Positions 902-24,364 of a stretch of DNA of 24,418 nucleotides are shown in pieces. How positions within the stretch are numbered: the first letter of the stretch is position 1; every line of letters starts with the position of its first letter. The stretch is from a virus (Duplodnaviria; Caudoviricetes): positions 1-24,418 of the IMG/VR virus record IMGVR_UViG_3300030207_001179, one strand, 5' to 3'. The position numbers were made by a program, and so were the translations under genes. The notes beneath the pieces are model-generated. The model was not told the DNA's origin. It saw only the letters and a program-made list of their open reading frames with translations, and ran no database searches.

Positions 902-2419
902 ATGTCATATCAATATACACCTTCTCCATGGCAGAAAAAGTTTCATGAGTCTAAGAGCAGGATTAAAATTGTATGGGCTGGTCGTAGAGCAGGTAAAGGT
1001 AGAGCAGTTCTTTCGGAACTTATGGTTGCTATCGCAGAGGCAGCTAAGACTCCTTTTCTAGCAGACAAAGAAATGGCGAAGGCAGCTAACCTACCAGTAG
1101 GATATGATCTAACTAACACACTAGAACCTGCAATCCATATATGGGTAGTTGCACCTAACTTTGCACAGAGCAGACAAGCATGGAACGAACTAAAACAATT
1201 CATACCACCAGAACTTGTAGTAAAAAGAAAACAAGGACAAGGTGGTGGTCGTGGTGACGGATGGAGAGAAGATGCAAAGTCTGTATGGCTATATCTAAAA
1301 AGTCCTAACCTAGTAAGACGAGATGTCTATATTGAAATAAAATCTGCTGATGATCCAGAATCTTTACAGACTGCAGGACCAGACTTTATCTGGATTACAG
1401 AGTCACAAGATATAAAAGAAGCTGCATGGAATAAACTAAGACCTATGCTTAACTCAGCTGGTCGACTTGGTAGAGGTTGTGTAGAAGGTATACCACCATT
1501 CCAAAGAACACACTGGTTTTCAAAACTTTTTAAATGGTCTAAAGAAAACCCTAGCGAAGATTACGAATCCTTTCATGCAACGAGTTTTGATAACGTATTC
1601 CTATCACAAAAACAGAAGTCTGCTATTGAAGACGAAAAAGCAACTATGCCAGAAATGGTATGGAACAGAATGTACATGGCTAAACAACCAGATGGTGGAG
1701 GTGGTTTCTTCAGACCTAGCAAGATACAAGAAGCTGGTACTGGTAAAGAAATGTTAATGCCAGATCCTAATAGAAGGTACGTTGCTGGATTAGACTTAGG
1801 TAAGAAACAAGACTATACAGTGTTCATTGTAAAAGATGCAATGAGTAGACAATCTGTGTATGCTTTAGAGATGTCTGGTAGTGACTGGGTTAGCCAAATA
1901 GAAACCATCAACTCAGAAATTACTAGATGGAAAGTAGGAGATGTTAGGGTTGACTCAACTGGTCTTGGTGATGTAGTATTTGACCATCTACTATCTTCTG
2001 GATTGCCAGTGACTTCATTTAAATTTAGCACTCAAAGTAAATATCAATTGTTTCAAAATTACTATCTAGCGCTAGAAAATGGGACTGTACATTTCCCAGA
2101 AAGTTGGGATACACTAAAAAGACAACTAGAAGATATAAGTATCAGACCTAGTGGAAATGGTTCATATGTGTTTTATAATGAATCAGGGGAACATGATGAT
2201 TGGGTTGATGCAGAGCTGTTAGCTCTAATGGCTAGTGATCCACCAGGGTATGAAGACGGTGAGTATAATTATTTGGGAGCTATAAGTAGAATGAGACCTA
2301 TAAGACCTACAGACTCTAAGAGACCGTCACGATTTATGCAAATGAGAAGACAACAAAAGACAAAACAAAAATTACAATATTTAGAAGAAAACGAATTAAT
2401 TAGTAGTGAGACTAGGTAA
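902..2419 (+). CDS. terL: Terminase large subunit
   Basis: N-terminal YTPSPWQ adenine-binding motif, P-loop GRRAGKG, WVVAPNFAQSR, KSADDPESL, and an RNase H-like nuclease domain with GLDLGKKQDYT, VDSTGLGD and HDDWVDA. Confidence 0.95.
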   Translation: MSYQYTPSPWQKKFHESKSRIKIVWAGRRAGKGRAVLSELMVAIAEAAKTPFLADKEMAKAANLPVGYDLTNTLEPAIHIWVVAPNFAQSRQAWNELKQFIPPELVVKRKQGQGGGRGDGWREDAKSVWLYLKSPNLVRRDVYIEIKSADDPESLQTAGPDFIWITESQDIKEAAWNKLRPMLNSAGRLGRGCVEGIPPFQRTHWFSKLFKWSKENPSEDYESFHATSFDNVFLSQKQKSAIEDEKATMPEMVWNRMYMAKQPDGGGGFFRPSKIQEAGTGKEMLMPDPNRRYVAGLDLGKKQDYTVFIVKDAMSRQSVYALEMSGSDWVSQIETINSEITRWKVGDVRVDSTGLGDVVFDHLLSSGLPVTSFKFSTQSKYQLFQNYYLALENGTVHFPESWDTLKRQLEDISIRPSGNGSYVFYNESGEHDDWVDAELLALMASDPPGYEDGEYNYLGAISRMRPIRPTDSKRPSRFMQMRRQQKTKQKLQYLEENELISSETR

Positions 2420-4360: not shown

Positions 4361-4551
4361 TGGCAAAAAATACACACCCATTAGAATTAGCATTTATGAA
4401 ATTTGATGAGACTACACAGCGAATGCTTAAACAAGTCTCTCAAAGTTTTGGTAACCTAGAAAAAATACCAGAAGTAAAACAACCACAGACTAGAAAAAAG
4501 AAACAAACTATATACAGCAACAATATGCCTAATCCATTTGGAGGGAACTAA
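4360..4551 (+). CDS. Small hypothetical protein (63 aa)
   Basis: TAATG-coupled to both neighbours; GAGG SD upstream. Confidence 0.75.
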   Translation: MAKNTHPLELAFMKFDETTQRMLKQVSQSFGNLEKIPEVKQPQTRKKKQTIYSNNMPNPFGGN

Positions 4552-6776
4552 TGACTACAGACAATTCTTATCAAAGACAAAACGAATTATTACCTAACCC
4601 ATTAGTTAGTGCAACAGATCCTAATACAGTATTTACAGGACCAATGGTTAGATTTATTCAAGATGTTCTTACAACAGGATCAAACTATGCGGAAACATAT
4701 TACGATGAAGGTGTGTTTTCTTCAACAAGAAAGAAAAACTGGGATTTAGATGAAACAGTAAATCAAATTAATCAAAGTGATGCTCCAGCAAACACACCTC
4801 TTTTTAACAATAGGTTACTTAATTCAAAAATTAACGCTTTTACTAGTAATCAACAAGAAAGAGATGCCCTTGTAGATTATTTTTCAAAAGTTAGCTTTAG
4901 TAAAAATGATTTAAATGCACTTAATAGGATAGTTGGTAGGATGGTAGATCCTGATGTTGCAACAAGAGTAGCAGCTGGTCTTGACACAAATCCAATAGCA
5001 TATGATGTTACTAATCAAACACCCTTTGCAGCAGATCAAATATTTACTGAAGAAGGTCTTTATACAAATCCCTTTGGGGAAACAGATCTAGATGCTATAC
5101 AGTATGGACTTCTTGGCAATAACGTTGTTTTTCCAGACACAGCTGCACCTCCAGTAGAGTCAGCCAGTTCTGCGATGGGTTCTATTGTTCCTAGTAATGT
5201 TACTCAAGATAACTTAACAGAATACTTAAATCAGTTAGGCACAACAGCAGATGATCTTTACTCACAAATTATAGCTAACCAAGATGAATTTCTTGTTAAC
5301 GAAATTGACCCAGATACTGGAACAGTAATTGGGCAAGTGCTTGACCCAATCGCACAACTTGTTGTAGAAAGAGCGGCAATTGCTAGTGAAGTAGATATGC
5401 AAAGAGAGATGGCTAAGAATGAAAGAGATTTTCAAGAAAAGGCAAATAGATTACAAAGAGCTCATAATGAATTTGTAGCTACTATACAAGCTAATGCTAC
5501 TTTAGATGCAAACCAAAAACAATTAGAAATTGCTCAAGCTCAAATAGATTTAGACAGAGAACTTGCAACTGCTAGATCGGAAGCAGATGTAGCCGAGGCA
5601 AATAGGTTAATTGCGTTAGACCAACAACGATACGAAGAAAGTGTAGCAGCTAGGAAAGCAGAAGCAGAAGCTAGGCAAAATCAGTTTGACTTGCAGATGC
5701 AGGAGTTACGAGACCGTAGAGCTTTAGATGAACAACTTGCAAACTTACAGGCTCAAGTTGGACTAGGTGCAAACGTAACACAAGAAAGAGTTGCATTAGA
5801 AAATCGTTTAGCAGCTGAAAGGTCAGCAGACCAACAAAGAATAGCAGATATACAAGTTGCAACTACACAAGCTGCAGCCCAAGAGGCTATTGCAAAAGCA
5901 AACCGAGATGCACAAACAGCTATAGCAAATGCACAGGCTAGTCAAACAACTACACTTGCAGATAAAGAAATAGCAATACAAGAAATATTACAAGAAAGAG
6001 ATGAAGAAATTGCTAGATTAAATCGTTTAGCACAAGAAAACATAGCAACTACACAGGCACAAACATCTCCTTTCTTTGGTTTAGATACACCAGCCGAAAG
6101 AGCTCAAGCTCAACTTGCAGGAACTGGTGGAGCGTTTGGTGCATTAGGAACACTGGCTGCATCTGGAACACCATTTACAGCAGACGATATTTCACAGGCA
6201 CAAAGAGGAGGACTAAGTGCAGCTGAACAACTAGCGTTAGCAAGAGCACCAGGTAATCCTTTTAATCTAAGTGCTAACCAACAGATAGCATTACAGACTG
6301 CCCTAGCAAGGGGAGGCTTAACTGCCGAAGAACAGTTCAACTTGCAAACAGCATTAGCAAGAGGTGGTTTATCTGCTGAAGATCAATTTGCATTACAAAC
6401 TGCCTTGGCTAGAGGTGGACTTACACCAGAACAAAGGTTAGCAGAACAAAGAGCTACAATTGCATCAGATATATTTAGGGCATCACCTCAAACATTAGGT
6501 GCATTGTCTGGAGTATTAGGTGGTAATCAAAACTTAAGAACTGCACTGAATCCATTTTTAGGAACTACATTTACAGGTAATGGTACAACTACAACTCCTA
6601 CTACCAATATGTCTGTTCCTACACTTAGACAATACCAGTCACAAACTCCATTTGAACAAGGAGCAACTCAAGCTAATTTTGCTGCAAGTGGTCAAAATTT
6701 AGAAGAGTCAATATTGGGAGGAACTCCTTTTGGAGTAAACATCCCTACAGGTACACTATCAGCACAGAATATATAG
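4551..6776 (+). CDS. Putative internal virion / DNA ejection protein with long coiled coil
   Basis: 741 aa; central A/Q/E/R-rich helical region, G/A-rich C-terminal third with 17-aa repeats. Composition is typical of podovirus ejection proteins; function is inferred. Confidence 0.55.
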   Translation: MTTDNSYQRQNELLPNPLVSATDPNTVFTGPMVRFIQDVLTTGSNYAETYYDEGVFSSTRKKNWDLDETVNQINQSDAPANTPLFNNRLLNSKINAFTSNQQERDALVDYFSKVSFSKNDLNALNRIVGRMVDPDVATRVAAGLDTNPIAYDVTNQTPFAADQIFTEEGLYTNPFGETDLDAIQYGLLGNNVVFPDTAAPPVESASSAMGSIVPSNVTQDNLTEYLNQLGTTADDLYSQIIANQDEFLVNEIDPDTGTVIGQVLDPIAQLVVERAAIASEVDMQREMAKNERDFQEKANRLQRAHNEFVATIQANATLDANQKQLEIAQAQIDLDRELATARSEADVAEANRLIALDQQRYEESVAARKAEAEARQNQFDLQMQELRDRRALDEQLANLQAQVGLGANVTQERVALENRLAAERSADQQRIADIQVATTQAAAQEAIAKANRDAQTAIANAQASQTTTLADKEIAIQEILQERDEEIARLNRLAQENIATTQAQTSPFFGLDTPAERAQAQLAGTGGAFGALGTLAASGTPFTADDISQAQRGGLSAAEQLALARAPGNPFNLSANQQIALQTALARGGLTAEEQFNLQTALARGGLSAEDQFALQTALARGGLTPEQRLAEQRATIASDIFRASPQTLGALSGVLGGNQNLRTALNPFLGTTFTGNGTTTTPTTNMSVPTLRQYQSQTPFEQGATQANFAASGQNLEESILGGTPFGVNIPTGTLSAQNI
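6291..6422 (+). repeat. Three in-frame 51-nt (17-aa) repeats with core LQTALARGGL
   Basis: LQTALARGGL starts at 6291, 6342 and 6393; a degenerate copy (AQRGGLSAAEQLAL) lies just upstream. Confidence 0.9.
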
Positions 6777-12499: not shown

Positions 12500-13396
12500 A
12501 TGGCAACAGGATTATCCCTTTCAAGCTCCTCGAGTTTGAGTGATATGTCTAAAATCATTGTCGCTGAATCAATTGATAACGTAGAGCCGTCAGCACCTAT
12601 GATGGACCTTGTGATGAGGTATGATATAGAAGCTGGCAGTAAACAGATCAACGTTCCTATTTGGGGAAGACAAAGTGCAGTAGCTCTTACTGAAGGTGTA
12701 GATTTATCTGTACCACAGCAGGTTACAGCAACAGTTGTAAGTTTGACTGCATCTGAACACGGAATACTATCATTTGTTAGTGACCGATTACGACATGAAA
12801 ACAACGAAAACGTACTGTCAGCAGTAGGTACTATGCACGGTCGTGCAGTAGGAAGACTACTAGACAGTGACTTATTGACACTATTAGACGGTTTCTCAAA
12901 GTCTGTACCAGGTGCAGGTAGCAATGCAACATTTACTACAATTGCAGGTGCAGTATCTTATTTGAGAACCGACAACAACTCAACATTTGGACCAGCTCCA
13001 AGTAGACCTAATGCAGTTCTACACCCAGAGCAGATACGAAGGTTGACTCAAGAACTTGCAGGTATACAAGCAGCAGGCACAGGAATGCCAGCTCAGACTG
13101 TACCAGAAGGCCCATCAGCTGACATAATCAGTTCTTACTGGAGAGGTAACGACCCAGTATTTGGTGTCCCGATCTATGAAGATGGAAACATCTCACGAGA
13201 TGGATCAGGTGACTCAAAAGGTGGAGTCTTTGCAATGGAAGCATTAGCTCTTGCAATGCAGAAAGAAATTACTGCTGAGGAAGAGAGAGACGCATCTCTA
13301 AGAGGTACTGAGATTGTAACAACTGGTACTTGGGGTGAGTCAGAAATCGTAGATACTTGGGGAGTTGAAATTCTTTCAGCTACTGATGCTGTCTAA
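12500..13396 (+). CDS. Major capsid protein (probable HK97 fold)
   Basis: 298 aa after the scaffold. HK97-like pattern: INVPIWG...ALTEGVDL (E-loop), long helix GTMHGRAVGRLLDSDLL, AVLHPEQ, VFGVPIYEDGNI, and terminal EEERDASLRGTEIVTTGTWG. Confidence 0.88.
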   Translation: MATGLSLSSSSSLSDMSKIIVAESIDNVEPSAPMMDLVMRYDIEAGSKQINVPIWGRQSAVALTEGVDLSVPQQVTATVVSLTASEHGILSFVSDRLRHENNENVLSAVGTMHGRAVGRLLDSDLLTLLDGFSKSVPGAGSNATFTTIAGAVSYLRTDNNSTFGPAPSRPNAVLHPEQIRRLTQELAGIQAAGTGMPAQTVPEGPSADIISSYWRGNDPVFGVPIYEDGNISRDGSGDSKGGVFAMEALALAMQKEITAEEERDASLRGTEIVTTGTWGESEIVDTWGVEILSATDAV

Positions 13397-13412: not shown

Positions 13413-13772
13413 GTGGTAACTCAGGATACGTCTCAATGGATTAACAAAAAACGAGGACACGTCAAAAGGTTCTTGAGTGAATCTATTGCAGAGTTAAACC
13501 TTGATATTCCAGCTGATGCTGAGAAGGTGACACTTTATGACCAGAGAGATGGTTCAAAGTTAGTCATCCCGAGATATGCCGCAGACACTTATCTAAAAAA
13601 ACCGTTTACCATTTGTGATATAAAAAATGGAACAATTGTAGATAACATAGACTCCAACAAAAAATTATTTGATTGGAAGCCACCTTCTAAGATTGAGGAT
13701 AGTGTAGCCAGCGCAGGTAAAGCTATCTCAAAAACTAAGAAACGAAAAAGAGGAAAGAGAGGCAGAAGATAA
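13413..13772 (+). CDS. Hypothetical protein with highly basic C-terminal tail
   Basis: GTG start after AGGTAGGT; ends KTKKRKRGKRGRR; TAATG-coupled to the next gene. Confidence 0.75.
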   Translation: MVTQDTSQWINKKRGHVKRFLSESIAELNLDIPADAEKVTLYDQRDGSKLVIPRYAADTYLKKPFTICDIKNGTIVDNIDSNKKLFDWKPPSKIEDSVASAGKAISKTKKRKRGKRGRR

Positions 13773-14245
13773 TGGAACAACCAGTTATTGCACCACCGAA
13801 AATAATGCAAAACTATTGGAGGGATGAAGTCATTGCACAACATCCTGACATGGTTAAGGAATATTTGGAGAGGAACAATTTACAGGAATTACCGTTACCT
13901 GAATACGTTACACCAGATCAAGCGATATTTTATCGTGAGATAAATGGTGAATGGGAAACTCTTAAGTACCCTGGACAGATTCATGGTCTCGCCACTGCCG
14001 TACAGAAAAATTGGCTCATGGCTCGCCCTGTGCTTGAGACGTTAGAAGCCGATAGTACCGAAGCTTCCAGTGAGAGCAGTCTAGAGGTGGCTACCGATAT
14101 GTTAGCACAAGAGTTAAAGAAACGGGAAACAAGAGAAATTAACAAAAGTAAATCTTTGAAATGTACTGTAAAAGGTTGCAGAAAAAGATTTGCTACAGAG
14201 AGTAACATGAAGATTCATATTACTCGGAAACATAAGGAAAATTAA
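13772..14245 (+). CDS. C2H2 zinc finger-containing protein
   Basis: C-terminal CTVKGCRKRFATESNMKIHITRKH = C-x4-C-x3-F-x5-M-x2-H-x4-H (14162-14233). Confidence 0.8.
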   Translation: MEQPVIAPPKIMQNYWRDEVIAQHPDMVKEYLERNNLQELPLPEYVTPDQAIFYREINGEWETLKYPGQIHGLATAVQKNWLMARPVLETLEADSTEASSESSLEVATDMLAQELKKRETREINKSKSLKCTVKGCRKRFATESNMKIHITRKHKEN

Positions 14246-17017: not shown

Positions 17018-19506
17018 TGCCACAACATACAGATGTAAAATTACAAAACACAGACGGCAGTTCAAATCCTGTAGAACTTACTTTATGGAAGGATAGTCCT
17101 AGTCTCCCAGGTGGTTATTCTTTAGGCAACAAGGCTTTCTTACCCCCTAGACAACCGACAGATGATGCGAACTACCAACAGGTAGATCCTAATGCCTCTA
17201 TGACGTACGACCTTACTTCTTTCCACAGAGGTTTCGGTCAAGGAGAAGATAGAAGTTTTGGTAAAGACAATAGGTATGGGTACTCTGACGGTGTGTTAGC
17301 AAACTTCAAAGGTGAGTTAACTTTAGGTTATGCACAAGAAGAAGTAGATATGATTATTAGAAATGGTAGATTTGAAGATACTGAAATCAACCAATGGACT
17401 GCAACTAACGTAACACCAGTTAGAAGTACATCTGATCCTAGATCAGGTGATGCCTCTCTACAAGTAACAGTTGGTTCTAACAATGGTACTCTGGTTCAAT
17501 CGTTTGTTGCTAAGTCAGCAGCAGCTTTGAATGGGCAGAACTATCAAGTCTTAGCATATGTAAAGAGAGTATCTGGTAGTGGTAGTTGTACACTTACTAC
17601 AACTAATGGTTCTGGTAGTGACAACTCATCTACGAGTACATCTTATTCTTTGATAGAAATACAAGGCACAGCAGCTAGCGCTGGTACTTCAATAACACTT
17701 ACGTTTAGTACGGCATCAGATGTGTGGCAAGTAGATGATATATGTGTAATTCCTGCAGGTGGTGTATCTTTCCCTGTACCTCCAGTCAACTTTGAAGGAT
17801 ACCTATATGCAATATGTGGACAGACACTTTTGTTTTGGAATGAAAGTAGAAAGGCATTTGATGTAGGTTATTACTTTGATAGAGTAATGTCTACGATAGA
17901 AGTCTTTGATGGTAAGTTGTTGGTAGGCAGTGACAATATAGATGGCAGTAGTAACTATAAATATTTTTACATAACAGTTGGTGGTAATCCAGCAAGTACA
18001 ACTATTACTGTAAACACAGTAACAAGTTCAAGTGCATCTGTAGCAAGAGCACAGTTCTTCGTAAAGGCTAGGAACGCCAACGGAGATTATGCAATAGCAA
18101 AAGTATATTCTAATAAGGTTTCATTCCTAGTTGATCCAGCCGTTAGTTCGCCTGTATGGGGTGGAGAACTAGAGGTAGGTAAGTCAGATAGAAATGTAAC
18201 CAATGCATTCTCAGCTAATGACACCTTGGTAGTTGGTAAAGAAGATGGCTTGTTTGTTTATGATAGAAACTTCAACCAGTTTAAAGATGTATCTCCAGAG
18301 GCTAACCTATTCACTGGTAGTAATAATTTCAAGAGAGCAATTGCAAGGGCAGGTAGAATATTTGCAACATCTGGAGACAGAGCATTCTGGTCTATACCTT
18401 TTCTTGTAGAGGGTAACCAGTGGGAAGATATATCTTACTTACTAAAGGCAACCAGTTTTATTGGTTTTGGTGGTAGAGTTACATCAATAGCACAAGATGT
18501 AAATAATATATTTGTTACCATAGCAGACGATCTAAAACCAAGTACACAGTTGTTTCCATATTCATTCCCTTTTGATTTTAGTACACAGGGTATTTCCCAG
18601 AAGATATATTTAGTTGGAATAAAAAACCAGAAAGAACCTAACGAGTCTGGGCCAGAAACAGTTGCACATACTATTACGTCTTTAGATATGACAGAGTGTA
18701 ATCAACTGGCAAGGTATAAAGATAATGCTAGTACATCAACAGGTATATCTAATACATTTGCTTTTGGTACATTTACTAACGATGACACAAGTGGATCTAA
18801 CGATCAAGAACCTAGAATAACTAGGTTAGTTATGCCACTAGAAAATGAACATCCTAGTTTGGTTGGTAGTAGACAGATAAGAACATCTGGTGAGTTTTAT
18901 ACATCCTTCATGGACTTTAATTTCCCAGACCAAGAGAAGTCTTTAGTGAAGGTTGCATTCCTTACAAAGAACGTAGACTCAGATAGTACAGTAAAACTTG
19001 AATATAAAATAGACGATACAACTGACGATGATGACCAGGGTTGGACTACCATAGGAACTATTAGTTCTTCTGGACACCAAGTATTAACTCCATCACTAAC
19101 AAGTCCAGTTGCATTCAAACGTATTAGATTTAAATTAACTTTGGTTACTGGTAATAGAACAGACCAAGGCCCAAGGATATTGAGCATGGTAGTACATTCT
19201 ATTTTCAACCCAGTAGATTTCCTTAGTTGGAATTTACAATCAAAGTTATTAGATGCTAGACTTACAGGTAGAAGGTTAAGACAAGTTAATGATACGCAAG
19301 TATTAAGTTCTGTCTTGAGCAACTTAGATACCTTGAGACAACAGGCATTTATTTTGTATACAGATCTTGATGGTACACAGTACCGTGCAAGAATAACAAA
19401 CAGAACTTTAGTACCTTTAGATAGAGATCGTAGGTTTATTAGTGGAGCTGCGACAGAAAGGTCTTATTTACTATCACTAACATTGAATGAGGTGAAAACA
19501 AGTTAA
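17017..19506 (+). CDS. Putative tail nozzle / tubular protein B-like protein with CBM_4_9-like insert
   Basis: 829 aa; beta-propeller-like blades (TLVVGKEDGLFVY, GRIFATS, NNIFVTI), C-terminal GEFYTSFMDFNFPDQEKSL and RIRFKLTL; insert IIRNGRFE...SGDASLQV...VDDICVIP. Confidence 0.6.
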   Translation: MPQHTDVKLQNTDGSSNPVELTLWKDSPSLPGGYSLGNKAFLPPRQPTDDANYQQVDPNASMTYDLTSFHRGFGQGEDRSFGKDNRYGYSDGVLANFKGELTLGYAQEEVDMIIRNGRFEDTEINQWTATNVTPVRSTSDPRSGDASLQVTVGSNNGTLVQSFVAKSAAALNGQNYQVLAYVKRVSGSGSCTLTTTNGSGSDNSSTSTSYSLIEIQGTAASAGTSITLTFSTASDVWQVDDICVIPAGGVSFPVPPVNFEGYLYAICGQTLLFWNESRKAFDVGYYFDRVMSTIEVFDGKLLVGSDNIDGSSNYKYFYITVGGNPASTTITVNTVTSSSASVARAQFFVKARNANGDYAIAKVYSNKVSFLVDPAVSSPVWGGELEVGKSDRNVTNAFSANDTLVVGKEDGLFVYDRNFNQFKDVSPEANLFTGSNNFKRAIARAGRIFATSGDRAFWSIPFLVEGNQWEDISYLLKATSFIGFGGRVTSIAQDVNNIFVTIADDLKPSTQLFPYSFPFDFSTQGISQKIYLVGIKNQKEPNESGPETVAHTITSLDMTECNQLARYKDNASTSTGISNTFAFGTFTNDDTSGSNDQEPRITRLVMPLENEHPSLVGSRQIRTSGEFYTSFMDFNFPDQEKSLVKVAFLTKNVDSDSTVKLEYKIDDTTDDDDQGWTTIGTISSSGHQVLTPSLTSPVAFKRIRFKLTLVTGNRTDQGPRILSMVVHSIFNPVDFLSWNLQSKLLDARLTGRRLRQVNDTQVLSSVLSNLDTLRQQAFILYTDLDGTQYRARITNRTLVPLDRDRRFISGAATERSYLLSLTLNEVKTS

Positions 19507-21503
19507 TGGCAAATGAATTTAAACACGCATCAGTTGGAACAGAGTTAACACAGGCAGAGTACGAAGGTACTGCATCGCACGTCTTAGACTCTCAAGCAGC
19601 TGGAGATATTATATATGCTAGTTCTACCACCCAGTTATCAAGACTTGGTATAGGTACAGCTGGTAAAGTGTTACAGGTAAACTCAGGGGCATCTGCACCA
19701 GAGTGGACAGCTGCACTTACTGGAGTAACATCTATACATGCAACTGATTTGATTATAGGTGAAGACTCACAAACTGCTATAGACTTTGGAACTCCAAACG
19801 AAATAGATTTCAAAGTAGACAATGCAAACAGACTTACTCTTACAACTGGTGCTTTGTATCCAGAAACTGATAACCAAATAGACTTAGGTACAAGTTCTTT
19901 AGAATTTAAGGATGCTTACTTTGATGGCACTGTAACATCAGATGCCTTTGCTGGCCCTCTTACTGGTGATGTAACAGGTACAGCTACTAATGCAACTCAT
20001 GTAACTGTTGCAGACAACGAAAGCACTGATGAAAATAATCTAATTCCATTTATAGAAGATACTTCTGCAACTGGAAATGTAGGACTAGAATCTGATGGAG
20101 ACTTTCATTACAATCCTAGTTCTGGTACTGTTACTGCTACAACATTTGTTGGTAATTTAACTGGTACTGCTTCATTAGCAACTACAGTAACTATAACTGA
20201 CAATGAATCAACTAATGAGGATAATGCTATTATCTTTACAGCAGGGGGAGACGTTGACGGTGGTAATCTTGGGTTAGAGTCAGATGGCACTTTGACTTAT
20301 AACCCTAGTACAGGAAAGATTACAGCAACTGGTTTTATAGGTGCGTTAACTGGTGATGTTACTGGAGATGTAACTGGTAATGCAGACACAGCGACAGCAC
20401 TAGCAACGGCTAGAACAATTGGTGGAGTATCTTTCAATGGAACTGCTAATATAAATCTTCCTGGTGTAAATACAGCAGGTAACCAAAATACTTCTGGAAC
20501 GGCAGCTGTAGCTACTACTGTAACAATTACAGATAACGAATCTACAAATGAAGACAATGCAATTGTGTTTACTTCTGGTGGAGATGTAGATGGTGGAAAC
20601 ATAGGTTTAGAATCTGACGGTACATTAACATATAATCCAAGTACAGGCAGTATAACTGCTACTGGATTTATTGGGGCATTGACAGGTAACGCTAGTACAG
20701 CAACTGCATTGGCAACAGCAAGAGCAATAAATGGTGTAAATTTTGATGGTACTGGTGCTATTACTGTACCAGCAGCTGGTTCTACTCTTAGCGATACAGT
20801 TCCTGTAAGTAAAGGTGGAACTAATGCTACTTCACTTGCAGATAAAGCTGTACTTATTACTCAAGATTCAGGTACTGATACTGTAGCAGCAGCAGCAATG
20901 TCAACAAATGGTCAGTTGCTTATTGGTGGAACTGATGGACCAGCGGTAACTACTCTTACAGCAGGAACTAATATGACAGTTACTAATGGTAATGGTTCAA
21001 TAACTCTTGCAGCGGCGTCTGGTGGGATTGAAAAAGCAGTTATATATAGACTGACTAGCAGTTTTACAGGAGATGCTGATCCAATTTCTTCAAACCTTGC
21101 AAAAGATAATACTCGTGGAGATAGTACACTTGGTGATAGTTTGGTATTAAATGAAAGTAGTGGAGTGTTTGATTTTGCAGGACCATCTAGTAATGGACCT
21201 GGCACAGGAACTTATTTAATACAAGCACACGCATTATTTGGGAATGGTGCTGCCGACCCTGAAACTAACCTAATGATAGAAGTAGCAACTGATGGAAGTA
21301 CATTTGAGCAAGCTAGCACTTCACAAGGTAGTGTTTACAATAGTAGTGCAAGGTCTGTGTTGACTGCTAGTTATATTTTTCAAGTAACTAATACTTCTAA
21401 CGATAAAGTGCAATTTAAAATTAGTGGTAATAGTGGAAGTAACACTATTTTTGGAGACTCAAATATAAACTATACATACTTTACATTTATAAAATTAGCC
21501 TAG
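19506..21503 (+). CDS. Tail fibre protein
   Basis: 665 aa, T/G/A-rich; GDIIYASSTTQLSRLGIGTAGKVLQV, VPVSKGGTNA and two ATALATARxIxGVxFxGT fibre motifs; beta-rich C-terminal tip domain. Confidence 0.88.
   Translation: MANEFKHASVGTELTQAEYEGTASHVLDSQAAGDIIYASSTTQLSRLGIGTAGKVLQVNSGASAPEWTAALTGVTSIHATDLIIGEDSQTAIDFGTPNEIDFKVDNANRLTLTTGALYPETDNQIDLGTSSLEFKDAYFDGTVTSDAFAGPLTGDVTGTATNATHVTVADNESTDENNLIPFIEDTSATGNVGLESDGDFHYNPSSGTVTATTFVGNLTGTASLATTVTITDNESTNEDNAIIFTAGGDVDGGNLGLESDGTLTYNPSTGKITATGFIGALTGDVTGDVTGNADTATALATARTIGGVSFNGTANINLPGVNTAGNQNTSGTAAVATTVTITDNESTNEDNAIVFTSGGDVDGGNIGLESDGTLTYNPSTGSITATGFIGALTGNASTATALATARAINGVNFDGTGAITVPAAGSTLSDTVPVSKGGTNATSLADKAVLITQDSGTDTVAAAAMSTNGQLLIGGTDGPAVTTLTAGTNMTVTNGNGSITLAAASGGIEKAVIYRLTSSFTGDADPISSNLAKDNTRGDSTLGDSLVLNESSGVFDFAGPSSNGPGTGTYLIQAHALFGNGAADPETNLMIEVATDGSTFEQASTSQGSVYNSSARSVLTASYIFQVTNTSNDKVQFKISGNSGSNTIFGDSNINYTYFTFIKLA
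19998..20687 (+). repeat. Three ~56-58-aa modules (DNEST...GLESDG...YNPS...TAT.F.G.LTG) in the tail fibre
   Basis: Copies at 19998-20165, 20181-20354 and 20514-20687; copies 2 and 3 share 54 of 58 residues. Confidence 0.92.
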
Positions 21504-21515
21504 GAGGAATGTAAC

Positions 21516-21854
21516 ATGGATATGACAACAGGTAGACCGAATCATATTGAAGATGTTCTTATAACATTAAATGCAGGACAATGGTTTAGTTGGTCAGATA
21601 GCTCAAATAAAGTTTATGCAAACTTAACAGTTGCTAGTGGTCACAGTAAACCAACAGAGTCAACTTTGACTACAAAGTTAGCCGAACTACAAGCAGCTTG
21701 GGATACAGAAAATGCTGCATATAGACTCAATAGGAAAGCAGAATACCCTAGTATTGGTGACCAATTAGATATGCAATACCATGACGCGGTCAATGGTACA
21801 TCTACCTGGAGAGATGCTATTGCAGCAGTAAAGAGTAAGTATGCAAAATCATAA
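21516..21854 (+). CDS. Tail fibre-associated (assembly/chaperone-like) protein
   Basis: SD AGGAGG; follows the fibre gene. C-terminal RKAEYPSIGDQLDMQYHD...WRDAIAAVKSKY is a motif I recall next to fibre genes in marine phages. Confidence 0.65.
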   Translation: MDMTTGRPNHIEDVLITLNAGQWFSWSDSSNKVYANLTVASGHSKPTESTLTTKLAELQAAWDTENAAYRLNRKAEYPSIGDQLDMQYHDAVNGTSTWRDAIAAVKSKYAKS

Positions 21855-21893: not shown

Positions 21894-22064
21894 ATGGATC
21901 AAGAAAATTTAGGAACAATAACTATGGATGATGTACTTTTGTTATGCAAACTTAATAAAGTTTTTGAATCACAGTTAATTCTAATAGCACAATCAAGAAT
22001 GAATACACAAGAGAAAGGAGAAAAAAATGCCTTATCACACAACAAAGAAGAAGAAAAAAAGTAA
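21894..22064 (+). CDS. Small hypothetical protein (56 aa), not in the ORF track
   Basis: AAGGAG SD then ATG; MDQENLGTITMDDVLLLCKLNKVFESQLILIAQSRMNTQEKGEKNALSHNKEEEKK. Confidence 0.7.
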   Translation: MDQENLGTITMDDVLLLCKLNKVFESQLILIAQSRMNTQEKGEKNALSHNKEEEKK

Positions 22065-22122
22065 CGGAATGAGAAAAAAGGGAATGGGGATGAAGTCTAA
22101 ACCAAAGAAAAAGAAATACTAA
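22027..22122 (+). CDS. Lys-rich microprotein (31 aa), not in the ORF track
   Basis: AAGGAG SD 6 nt before ATG; MPYHTTKKKKKSNGMRKKGMGMKSKPKKKKY; 14 K/R, no D/E. Confidence 0.7.
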   Translation: MPYHTTKKKKKSNGMRKKGMGMKSKPKKKKY

Positions 22123-22123
22123 T

Positions 22124-22297
22124 ATGAAAGTAAAGAATGTAAACATAGACTCTTTGAGTAAAAGGCAACAGGCTTCTATGAAAAGACACGGCAAACACCA
22201 TACTGCTAAACATCTTAGAGAGATGGTGAAGTCTATGAATAGAGGTAGAACTTTTACGCAGTCTCATAAATCTGCTATGAGAAAAGTAGGAAAGTGA
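22124..22297 (+). CDS. Basic His/Met-rich small protein (57 aa), not in the ORF track
   Basis: Starts 1 nt after the previous stop; MKVKNVNIDSLSKRQQASMKRHGKHHTAKHLREMVKSMNRGRTFTQSHKSAMRKVGK. Confidence 0.8.
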   Translation: MKVKNVNIDSLSKRQQASMKRHGKHHTAKHLREMVKSMNRGRTFTQSHKSAMRKVGK

Positions 22298-22371
22298 TAG
22301 GTGATAGAGTGTTTAGTTTTATATTGTTTATAGCAATGCTAATCACTTTATTATTTATAGGAGAAATGTAA
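22294..22371 (+). CDS. Putative single-pass membrane micropeptide (25 aa), not in the ORF track
   Basis: GTG overlaps the upstream TGA (GTGA) and its TAA overlaps the next ATG (TAATG); MIGDRVFSFILFIAMLITLLFIGEM. Confidence 0.55.
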   Translation: MIGDRVFSFILFIAMLITLLFIGEM

Positions 22372-22562
22372 TGGCTACTAAAAAGAAAAGAAAATCAACA
22401 GTCAATCAAGCAGGTAATTATACTAAACCTACTATGAGGAAACGATTGTTTCAGAGAATAAAAGCAGGTAGTAAAGGTGGTGCTAGAGGGCAATGGTCTG
22501 CTCGTAAAGCTCAGATGTTGGCTAAACAATACAAAGCAAAAGGTGGAGGATACAGAAACTAA
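22371..22562 (+). CDS. Small basic protein resembling the N-terminal half of DUF5872
   Basis: NYTKPTMRKRLF...GSKGGARGQWSARKAQMLAKQYKAKGGGY; 19 K/R, no D/E. Family assignment is from memory. Confidence 0.75.
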   Translation: MATKKKRKSTVNQAGNYTKPTMRKRLFQRIKAGSKGGARGQWSARKAQMLAKQYKAKGGGYRN

Positions 22563-22681
22563 TGCCAAAAGGAAAAAAGGGATACTCTGCTAAACAAAAA
22601 AGAATAGCAAGAGTAGCACCACCAAGAAATAAAATAACTGGTGCAGATTTTAAAAAACTAAAACGAGGTAGACGCAAGTAA
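22562..22681 (+). CDS. Basic microprotein (39 aa), not in the ORF track
   Basis: TAATG overlaps at both ends; MPKGKKGYSAKQKRIARVAPPRNKITGADFKKLKRGRRK; 16 K/R. Confidence 0.8.
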   Translation: MPKGKKGYSAKQKRIARVAPPRNKITGADFKKLKRGRRK

Positions 22682-22923
22682 TGGCTAAGACCAAACGTCA
22701 ACAATCTTTAACTAAGTGGACTAAACAGAAGTGGGATTACGTTTCACCTGGGGATAAGAAAAAACCTAAAGGTAAACGTGGTAGGTATTTACCTGCTAGT
22801 GTTCGTGCTAGTCTAAGTCCAGGAGAAAAGGCAGCTACTAACAGGAAGAAAAGGAAAGCTGGTGGTGTAGGTAGTAGGGCAAAGTATTCAAAGAAAATAG
22901 CAAAGGGTGTAAGGAGTGCTTAA
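22681..22923 (+). CDS. Small basic protein resembling the C-terminal half of DUF5872
   Basis: QQSLTKWTKQKW...RYLP...LSPGEKAATNRKKR; 26 K/R in 80 aa. Family assignment is from memory. Confidence 0.75.
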   Translation: MAKTKRQQSLTKWTKQKWDYVSPGDKKKPKGKRGRYLPASVRASLSPGEKAATNRKKRKAGGVGSRAKYSKKIAKGVRSA

Positions 22924-23198
22924 TGGTAGCAAAGAAATATCAAAATCCTAAAGGTGGGTTGAATGCAGCAGGTAGGGCATACTTCAAAAGAAAAGAAGGA
23001 TCTAATCTAAAGAGACCACTGAAGTCTGGTACATCACCTAGACGTGTAAGTTTTGCCGCTAGGTTTGGTGGCATGAAAGGTCCTATGAAAGATAGTAAAG
23101 GTAGACCTACTAGAAAGGCATTAGCATTGAGAGCTTGGGGGTTTAGAAGTCCTGAGTCTGCTAGAAACTTTGCTAAAAGACACAAAAAAAAGAAATAA
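22923..23198 (+). CDS. Small basic protein (DUF6321-like)
   Basis: NPKGGLNAAGRAY...NLKRP...RRVSFAARFGGM...ALRAWG; 28 K/R in 91 aa. Family assignment is from memory. Confidence 0.7.
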   Translation: MVAKKYQNPKGGLNAAGRAYFKRKEGSNLKRPLKSGTSPRRVSFAARFGGMKGPMKDSKGRPTRKALALRAWGFRSPESARNFAKRHKKKK

Positions 23199-23201
23199 TA
23201 T

Positions 23202-23486
23202 ATGGTAGATAAATCTCAAAAAGATATTAAAGAGAAAGATGGGAATGTAAATCTAACTGGAACACAGTTGATTACCTTCCTTATTTTTTTCCCAATCGTA
23301 GTAGTGTGGTTGTTCCTCGCTGCTAGAATAGTTTGGAGTGCATCAAGTAATCCTGAGACCCTAGATTCTATTGAGGGATTACTAACAGCTTTGGCAGTCT
23401 TGTCGTTGCCAGTCGCTGGTGGACTATCAGAAATACTTAGGGCATATGCTGCTGAGGTAACAGACAAGAAAAAAGGAGATGACTGA
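23202..23486 (+). CDS. Holin-like membrane protein with two predicted TM segments
   Basis: Hydrophobic LITFLIFFPIVVVWLFLAARIVW and GLLTALAVLSLPVAGGL; charged termini; 94 aa. Confidence 0.5.
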   Translation: MVDKSQKDIKEKDGNVNLTGTQLITFLIFFPIVVVWLFLAARIVWSASSNPETLDSIEGLLTALAVLSLPVAGGLSEILRAYAAEVTDKKKGDD

Positions 23487-24364
23487 TGAAGATAACATTC
23501 AAGTCAAAAACATTTCGTTTTCCTAAAATCTACATACCAAAGATTAGGGCAAAGCTCAGTCTGCCAGTATTGCAGATGGCTATACCACGAATTACTACGA
23601 AGTTAGGTTTAGGAGATAACTTCAGAAAAATAATGGGCATATCGTTGTCCTTAGCAGGTTTGATAATAGTAGGTTCTGTTTATTTTGCTATTGCAGGAGT
23701 AAATCAAGCACCAGTATTTCCACAGTCTGCAACATACGATATGAACGAAAACACAACTAACGTCCCAGTAGGTAACGAGGGATCGGAACTAACACAGACC
23801 TTAGCCTTGAATATAGGTGGTGCTAGGATAGAGTCAATTATTATTGATGACATCAACGTAGGTAGTACAACTATTACCGACTCACTAAAGATATTCGCAA
23901 CAGGCGCTCATTGGATAGAGGTAGATGAATTACTGATAGACAATCTTACTGCACCTGACTTTGTGCTAGGCTCAAGTGAGATCTATGAGTTAGTCGTAAA
24001 AGACAACAAAGCAGATGGTAATTCGTTTAGTCCAACTTTGACTAATGGGATAGCAGATATTACATTGGCATCTACTCGTGGTGCAATAGACCTGCCCGCA
24101 GTTACAGGTTCAGATTATGACCGAATAGTCATCAACACGAGTGGTGCTAATGCACAGATAGGCAAGTTACACATCAAGAACTTGAAGGCGTATGATGAAG
24201 GCATTGTTCTAAACAACTTGAAGGTTGGTAAGTTAACAATACAAAACTCTTCAATTGGAGATGGCGATGGGATTGACTCCGCAGATTTTATTATTCAATC
24301 AGATACTAAGATCGCACAGTCTACATTGACCAACAATGCAGAAGTACCGATTAGCGTAAAGTAG
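23486..24364 (+). CDS. Membrane-anchored protein with probable beta-solenoid external domain
   Basis: TGATG-coupled; basic Pro-periodic N-terminus, TM segment IMGISLSLAGLIIVGSVYFAIAGV, then repeated I/V-x-x-L-x-I-x-N strands. Confidence 0.6.
   Translation: MKITFKSKTFRFPKIYIPKIRAKLSLPVLQMAIPRITTKLGLGDNFRKIMGISLSLAGLIIVGSVYFAIAGVNQAPVFPQSATYDMNENTTNVPVGNEGSELTQTLALNIGGARIESIIIDDINVGSTTITDSLKIFATGAHWIEVDELLIDNLTAPDFVLGSSEIYELVVKDNKADGNSFSPTLTNGIADITLASTRGAIDLPAVTGSDYDRIVINTSGANAQIGKLHIKNLKAYDEGIVLNNLKVGKLTIQNSSIGDGDGIDSADFIIQSDTKIAQSTLTNNAEVPISVK

Follow-up and report, generated by a model that had tools for sequence, protein, structure and literature searches.

The distal end of the virion operon described here raises the question of what a run of very small and strongly basic proteins does for a tailed phage. 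Our window, by which we mean the whole 24,418-nucleotide stretch analysed, is an entire IMG/VR virus record (IMGVR_UViG_3300030207_001179; completeness about 63%) and consists of a single plus-strand virion operon whose genes include those for a terminase, a capsid protein and a tail fibre. Near its end lie six cationic ORFs, A to F, of 31, 57, 63, 39, 80 and 91 aa, all on the plus strand. An initial annotation had proposed that they form a dedicated late module located between tail and lysis genes, and its count of 119 Lys/Arg versus 9 Asp/Glu residues in 361 aa, like the six sizes, was exact on recount. Charge per residue ranges from +0.25 to +0.45 for these ORFs versus -0.09 to +0.10 for the 22 other ORFs counted, and the six proteins together carry a net charge of about +110.

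The members of the cluster differ in character. ORF A (22027..22122, + strand), preceded by AGGAG, encodes a low-complexity Lys/Met/Gly peptide at +0.45 per residue and is, to judge by composition, probably the sole protamine-like member; its homologues were sought only among the loci that we fetched, where they occur at 9. ORF D (22562..22681, +) is an optional member, a basic peptide whose C-terminal motif is conserved and which has a homologue in phage HTVC034P; the family was found at 26 loci in the same restricted search. Neither A nor D matches a Pfam or PHROG family. In contrast, invariant Trp, Tyr, His or Gly positions are present in the family alignments of B, C, E and F, which match phrog_31838 (ORF B, 22124..22297, +; homologue in phage HTVC111P), phrog_17747 (ORF C, 22371..22562, +), phrog_14910 (ORF E, 22681..22923, +) and DUF6321 (ORF F, 22923..23198, +). 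Five His residues of ORF B are invariant among 19 aligned homologues and could possibly form a small metal- or phosphate-binding motif. The Atlas look-alike cluster for ORF B includes one member recorded as Nucleocytoviricota.

All six ORFs are under purifying selection, with dN/dS values between 0.04 and 0.20 (A 0.10, 5 pairs; B 0.04, 9 pairs; C 0.08, 115 pairs; D 0.20, just 3 pairs; E 0.10, 8 pairs; F 0.08, 58 pairs), as computed for homologues with identities of 80% or higher, a filter that pushes such values low. Purifying selection and the existence of homologues together rule out an artefact of composition, and selection combined with the position in the virion operon supports the proposal of a dedicated late module of real genes. 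We also agree that the cluster is no tandem duplication, given that profile comparison of families B, C, D, E and F, with A left out, yielded no pair above a probability of 30.

The chain of junctions (a 1-nt gap, one GTGA and four TAATG) was described correctly, but a seventh ORF had been missed. This 25-aa hydrophobic ORF (22294..22371, +), a predicted single-pass membrane peptide that accounts for the GTGA and the first of the TAATG junctions, keeps its frame and hydrophobic core in all 10 close relatives examined. Its stop codon is lost in 4 of these 10, and the frame then continues beyond the start of the next gene. Four TAATG junctions exceed the maximum of 2 seen in 2000 mononucleotide shuffles. 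However, overlaps of the -1 type are found at 12 of the 27 junctions in the operon, and at 8 of 21 outside the cluster, and thus translational coupling, which had been presented as a special feature, is a local habit and marks nothing peculiar to these genes. Within the cluster, 10 sites resembling sigma-70 promoters versus 8.4 expected are at chance level, and nothing exceeding chance was found in searches for a terminator or an RNA family. One RNA run contains three contigs that are 90-95% alike to parts of this region, one of them with C joined straight to E, and such contigs cannot prove transcription.

Family matches place the large terminase at 902-2419 (+) and the capsid protein at 12500-13396 (+); the nearest cultured relatives of the latter, at 35% identity, come from pelagiphages HTVC112P and HTVC111P. 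The phage is probably short-tailed. Upstream of the cluster is a 665-aa tail fibre gene (19506-21503, +; PHROG tail fibre matches), and this gene together with a 112-aa gene of phrog_9114, to which no function is assigned, occupies 19506..21854 (+). A 56-aa ORF (21894-22064) then overlaps ORF A by 38 nt; it shows weaker selection (dN/dS 0.40, 2 pairs), and other genes take its place in relatives. A gene of 167-168 aa (PHROG 4102, ‘terminase small subunit’) is inserted directly upstream of the cluster in some close relatives (L178:4295-4798, L172 and L199) and is lacking from the window. Elsewhere in the operon, a 157-aa ORF located 3' of the capsid gene (13772-14245) ends in a C2H2 zinc-finger-like motif that falls below the Pfam cut-off, the 119-aa ORF just before it has a basic tail at its end, and a helical motif of about 17 residues is repeated at 5900-6450 within the ORF at 4551-6776, a 741-aa probable internal virion protein.

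Two ORFs immediately downstream look membrane-anchored. The first (94 aa; 23202..23486, +; dN/dS 0.035) has two hydrophobic segments and is holin-like by shape only, with no Pfam or PHROG family above cut-off; the second (292 aa; 23486..24364, +) has one hydrophobic segment followed by a beta-rich region and no lysin match in the same databases. Pfam and PHROG searches recognised neither a lysin nor an endolysin among the window ORFs, and no head protease was recognised among the 28 ORFs of this record, which is only about 63% complete. Visual inspection of three close relatives showed two further small ORFs at the end of the operon and, beyond them, genes on the opposite strand.

GenBank phage records match F in 435 cases, C in 17, and E, B and D in one each, with best identities of 61-79% for F and 73-87% for C. 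Among IMG/VR stretches we estimate about 11000 carriers for C, a family that forms 1397 clusters at 50% identity, and 2100 for F, which was confirmed in 7984 of 8000 scored near-length candidates. Carriers include phages of SAR11, OM43, SAR116, Roseobacter and cyanobacteria; HMO-2011 is one of the cultured carriers, and F is encoded by the T7-like cyanophage S-TIP37. In MEP402, F-C-E lies ahead of the terminase; in HTVC034P, F, D, C and E occur amid further cationic ORFs; in HTVC111P, B is accompanied by three more; HTVC200P carries F and two more between the scaffold and capsid genes; and in MEP301, F is immediately upstream of the portal gene.

We then evaluated a non-random set of 262 IMG/VR loci, comprising the best 80 matches each for C, F and E and all 25 for B. 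The density of other cationic small ORFs is 2.0-2.3 per kb up to 500 bp from the anchor gene versus 0.09-0.16 per kb beyond 1 kb. After merging of these loci into 138 groups, 126 had enough flanking sequence for analysis, and at 113 of these 126 non-redundant loci at least two cationic genes are present, in 74 gene orders. These families are therefore clustered, as had been anticipated, rather than scattered, and they are shuffled across many unrelated aquatic phages. Clusters contain from 1 to 7 genes with a median net charge of 63 (about 26 to 96 between the 10th and 90th percentiles), and draw on more than a dozen further cationic families, including G (a weak DUF5754 match) and H (DUF5824), as well as many low-complexity peptides resembling A that have no assigned family. 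At 50 loci, the nearest large named gene encodes a head, packaging or portal function in 22 cases, a tail protein in 5, a ferredoxin-like protein in 3, and a lysin and a ribonucleotide reductase in 2 each; 16 loci have none. The proposed link to lysis genes is consequently weak, since lysin is so rarely the neighbour and none was recognised in the window. Some C/E clusters (at L228, L216, L246, L065 and others) reside on larger contigs near ribonucleotide reductase genes and belong to a different, larger virus group, with genes for distant relatives of the window's own 94-aa membrane protein close by.

Family F or its relative L is present without G in 49 of the 126 clusters, G without F or L in 44, neither in 33 and both in none; at loci with C or E the corresponding numbers are 24, 43, 32 and 0, and shared ancestry inflates any p-values calculated from these counts. 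Moreover, G replaces F at the identical position in close relatives of the window phage. This mutual exclusion suggests specific slots rather than bulk charge alone. Homology between F and G was considered and rejected as weak (E 0.009).

The cluster had also been viewed as six unrelated units, and this view does not hold for C and E. ORFs C and E are the N- and C-terminal halves of one DUF5872-like protein, which exists in fused form in bacterial genomes. Of the 80 best-matching GTDB loci, 42 have both in one protein (36 as C+E and 6 as E+C), and C precedes E in 78 of the 78 clusters that contain both genes. DUF5872 is the nearest named family to ORF C in the Atlas (0.87). The window's C and E do not match DUF5872 (PF19197) at the Pfam cut-off; one of 32 C members gives E 0.045, two of 47 E members match (best 3.2e-5), one fused C+E protein scores 27.1 versus a cut-off of 27.5 over profile positions 2-98 of 116, and four other C+E fusions and one E+C fusion show no match at 1e-4. 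The C+E fusions are encoded among housekeeping genes at all five bacterial loci whose neighbours were checked, and split C and E genes adjoin terminase or capsid genes at both loci checked. The N-terminal tails of the bacterial fusions are often rich in Lys and Ala, which we take to be a likeness to the histone-H1 type. Predicted from 7 sequences, the model of a bacterial C+E fusion is helical, with a mean pLDDT of 67.7 and a pTM of 0.38. The permuted E+C form occurs at six Pelagibacteraceae loci (including L330:2734-3150 and L341:2698-3165), and the L330 copy is flanked by a short-chain dehydrogenase gene and a TspO/MBR gene, apparently on a chromosome. From the chromosomal C+E fusions it follows that this domain is of use where there is no capsid, an argument for nucleic-acid binding of a general kind that also keeps a cytoplasmic role alive.

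What bears on a possible capsid location comes from family F. ORF F matches DUF6321 (PF19846) at 84.3 bits, with a cut-off of 28.5, over positions 2-72 of the 72-position profile, and is predicted to form a four-helix mini-domain (pLDDT 85.9). The F module is also present in 551 longer proteins. In a set of 123 F-bearing proteins related to one another in sequence (120 listed plus three phage proteins), a Glu lies within 4 residues upstream of the module in 66 and Gly-Gly within 8 residues in 52, leaving 5 with neither; these classes represent 36, 32 and 5 distinct upstream 16-mers, respectively, and the chance expectation for a Glu within 4 residues is 0.28. The polyproteins that carry F contain many Glu sites, the Glu residues before the module in T4-like cyanophages resemble those used by the prohead protease, and T4 gp21 cleaves after L/I-X-E according to the available part of PMC9026906. 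Furthermore, a targeting-like motif occurs 21 times versus 2.0 in 500 shuffles (maximum 8), a tenfold enrichment of this motif class in the Glu-type F proteins, which are related sequences. One stand-alone DUF6321 protein of 91 aa, encoded by S-CREM1 gene 179, begins with MKTYNDFITE, which is identical at 7 of 10 positions, including 4, 7, 8 and 10, to the MKTYQEFIAE of T4 IPII and IPIII. In the 10-residue capsid-targeting peptide of T4, residues 4 and 7 are assigned to targeting and 8 and 10 to processing (PMC9026906, available part). The motif is absent from all six window ORFs.

An F homologue has also been detected in virions. Gene 115 of S-SM1 (cluster T4-GC119; 1488 nt) encodes a 495-aa polyprotein with F at its C-terminal end, and the accessible portion of PMC3037559 (Suppl. 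Table 8, whose column order is deduced from gene sizes) records this protein in purified virions with 13 peptide counts that are not resolved by module. Within that same portion, the ‘structural protein’ label of T4-GC119 derives from the S-SM1 virion proteomics, the gene is present in 15 of 16 cyanomyophages (S-PM2 lacks it), and the Syn9 homologue is not detected in virions (PMC3037559). The identical label on S-P4 and other phages cites T4 GC0119 and is no independent evidence.

The second linker type also recurs with family C, which follows Gly-Gly in 46 of 84 longer proteins with extensions of at least 30 aa, some of which look like over-called starts; Gly-Gly occurs 111 times in these extensions versus 55 when shuffled. 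One protein joins F and C via Gly-Gly linkers. By analogy with eukaryotic viruses, Gly-Gly may represent a protease site. Several large proteins (P0002, P0004, P0021, P0100 and P0107), some with LysM, have basic modules split by repeated KYGG, KKGG or AEGG, and these may point to a so far unrecognised phage protease system that matures proteins at Gly-Gly. Homology of C and E to other modules of the T4-like polyprotein was not accepted, since HHalign gave E 0.004 and 0.017 at probabilities below 10, as the best of 12 comparisons each.

Taken together, these observations lead us to assign a probability of about 0.52 to the reading that the cluster encodes late-made, capsid-packaged nucleic-acid-binding cargo that works like the internal proteins of T4. 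The targeting peptide, the protease-like linkers and the virion detection all come from homologues, the virion data from one polyprotein of one myophage, and because the window ORFs carry no targeting peptide, packaging here is extrapolated from F homologues of another lineage. Judging from its position, the coupled run of genes would be translated late in infection, and the products would either be taken up into the prohead or go in after the DNA. During packaging, their Lys and Arg residues would offset DNA phosphate charge, much as internal-protein lysines are described as touching DNA phosphates in T4 heads (PMC3012670, available part), and the folded members (B, C+E and F) might recognise specific partners or nucleic-acid structures. 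On ejection, the proteins would leave together with the DNA, and might then protect it or affect the host. There would be few specific slots, each filled by interchangeable families, and where a phage has a head protease, the modules would arrive as polyproteins to be cleaved; the window phage encodes them as separate mini-genes. Packaging and DNA binding of the window proteins themselves are thus best regarded as predictions.

A quite different role is conceivable for the same proteins if they act late in the cytoplasm, binding to RNA, ribosomes or the host nucleoid and steering the cell, and are packaged incidentally or not at all. Their size and composition resemble those of small RNA-binding proteins, fusions of C and E exist in bacterial chromosomes (with E+C at the six Pelagibacteraceae loci), the exclusion between F and G implies a specific target, and the high identities across hosts (61-79% for F, 73-87% for C) are expected of a conserved one. 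We nonetheless judge this reading unlikely, because the genes are located among virion genes and F homologues have the targeting peptide, the linkers and the virion detection. Likewise, no likeness to ribosomal proteins was found: Pfam gave no ribosomal or RNA-binding family for the ORFs, profiles B, C, E and F, run against solved chains with an E limit of 1, gave no ribosomal-protein match or solved relative (the best match of C being a phage N peptide at E 0.28), and a search of 48161 chains with the F model produced an uninformative best Z of 3.1. A transient role in the assembly or packaging of heads, in which the proteins bind scaffold, portal or terminase and mostly leave the head at maturation, would account for the many genes that adjoin scaffold, portal and terminase genes and for polyproteins whose numerous Glu sites resemble those of cleaved core proteins, and T4 IPIII influences the rate of head assembly according to a source available in part. 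It fits poorly with the detection of the homologue in mature S-SM1 virions, as given in the accessible portion of that report, with the strongly positive net charge, and with locations at tail genes and operon ends, and we regard it as very unlikely.

Two further readings were considered. Were the proteins pure protamine-like counter-ions, any basic peptide would suffice and the total charge in the head alone would count, which agrees with the variation in gene number (1 to 7) and cluster net charge and with the many A-like low-complexity peptides. This may be true of ORF A, yet for the cluster as a whole it is distinctly unlikely in view of the invariant Trp, Tyr, His and Gly residues, the low dN/dS values, the confident predicted fold of F and the fixed order of C before E, and additive charge does not predict the exclusion between F/L and G. 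The earlier suggestion of condensation or charge neutralisation in the capsid therefore survives in part: F homologues back the capsid interior, but most members, with the invariant cores of B, C, E and F, are not protamine-like. The other suggestion, of cationic peptides that disrupt the envelope during lysis together with neighbouring membrane proteins, could draw on the conserved 25-aa hydrophobic ORF within the cluster, on the small membrane-type ORFs downstream here and in close relatives, and on HTVC111P, whose cluster sits after the lysozyme gene. We find it hardly credible, given a hydrophobic fraction of just 0.13-0.23 in the cluster proteins, the rarity of a lysin as the closest large named gene (2 of 50 loci), the lack of a recognised lysin in the window, and head-targeting signals on F homologues.

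The packing of tailed-phage genomes is usually ascribed to polyamines and metal ions, with internal proteins of the T4 type seen as a speciality of one lineage. If the cluster proteins are packed and bound to DNA, they would represent a widespread and overlooked counterpart of the T4 internal proteins. A role as head cargo would provide a function for a sizeable set of the hypothetical genes that abundant ocean phages carry, and would allow small phages to be used for testing what internal proteins of the T4 type are for, a question that has long stood open. Such proteins are easily missed because gene callers drop them and because trypsin, by computation, leaves only 1-4 usable peptides (at least 7 residues) per protein. 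A bolder generalisation, which we offer tentatively and think more doubtful than the packaging of the cluster, is that a modular core-protein kit exists across unrelated aquatic tailed-phage lineages. More than a dozen cationic mini-domain families would fill few slots (C+E; F or G), encoded either in coupled mini-genes or in polyproteins cut by proteases (T4-like at Glu linkers, others at Gly-Gly), would be packed with the genome, and would enter the cell as a DNA shield or counter-defence payload, with the domains also serving bacterial chromosomes and giant viruses.

The locus had been called the best candidate for an undescribed system. No such cluster, slot exclusion, split and fused forms or link to head targeting, nor any mention of DUF6321, was found in the literature searched, whose coverage excludes most subscription papers; the families themselves are already catalogued (DUF6321 and four PHROGs), without function. 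ORF F is a member of DUF6321, a module also present in T4-GC119, but is a stand-alone 91-aa gene amid other cationic families. C and E, which resemble the halves of DUF5872, are separate genes here and do not reach the Pfam threshold. Among the other cluster members, DUF5824 is matched above its cut-off (57.7 bits) and DUF5754 weakly. Both DUF5872 and DUF5754 are listed for an algal giant virus genome in the available part of PMC12085832.

With T4 IPI, IPII and IPIII, the cluster proteins share small size, basic character, variability among phages and, presumably, the nature of non-essential-type cargo, and the likeness extends to a DUF6321 homologue with a nearly identical 10-residue targeting peptide and to others with gp21-type Glu linkers. 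In contrast, the T4 proteins are mildly basic (13-34 Lys and Arg versus 11-25 Asp and Glu), compared with +0.25 to +0.45 per residue in the cluster, and show no Pfam or PHROG family match to the window ORFs; small phages and bacterial chromosomes encode the cluster modules too, and these can also follow Gly-Gly linkers. Because the window ORFs lack the targeting peptide, we do not file them as members of the T4 internal proteins. Another parallel is provided by adenovirus VII and mu and, in a source available in part, ascovirus P64, which are basic virion proteins that condense DNA. Adenovirus core proteins are released from precursors at Gly-Gly sites. Unlike these core proteins of eukaryotic viruses, most cluster members look like folded mini-domains, and several families are present per phage genome in exchangeable slots.
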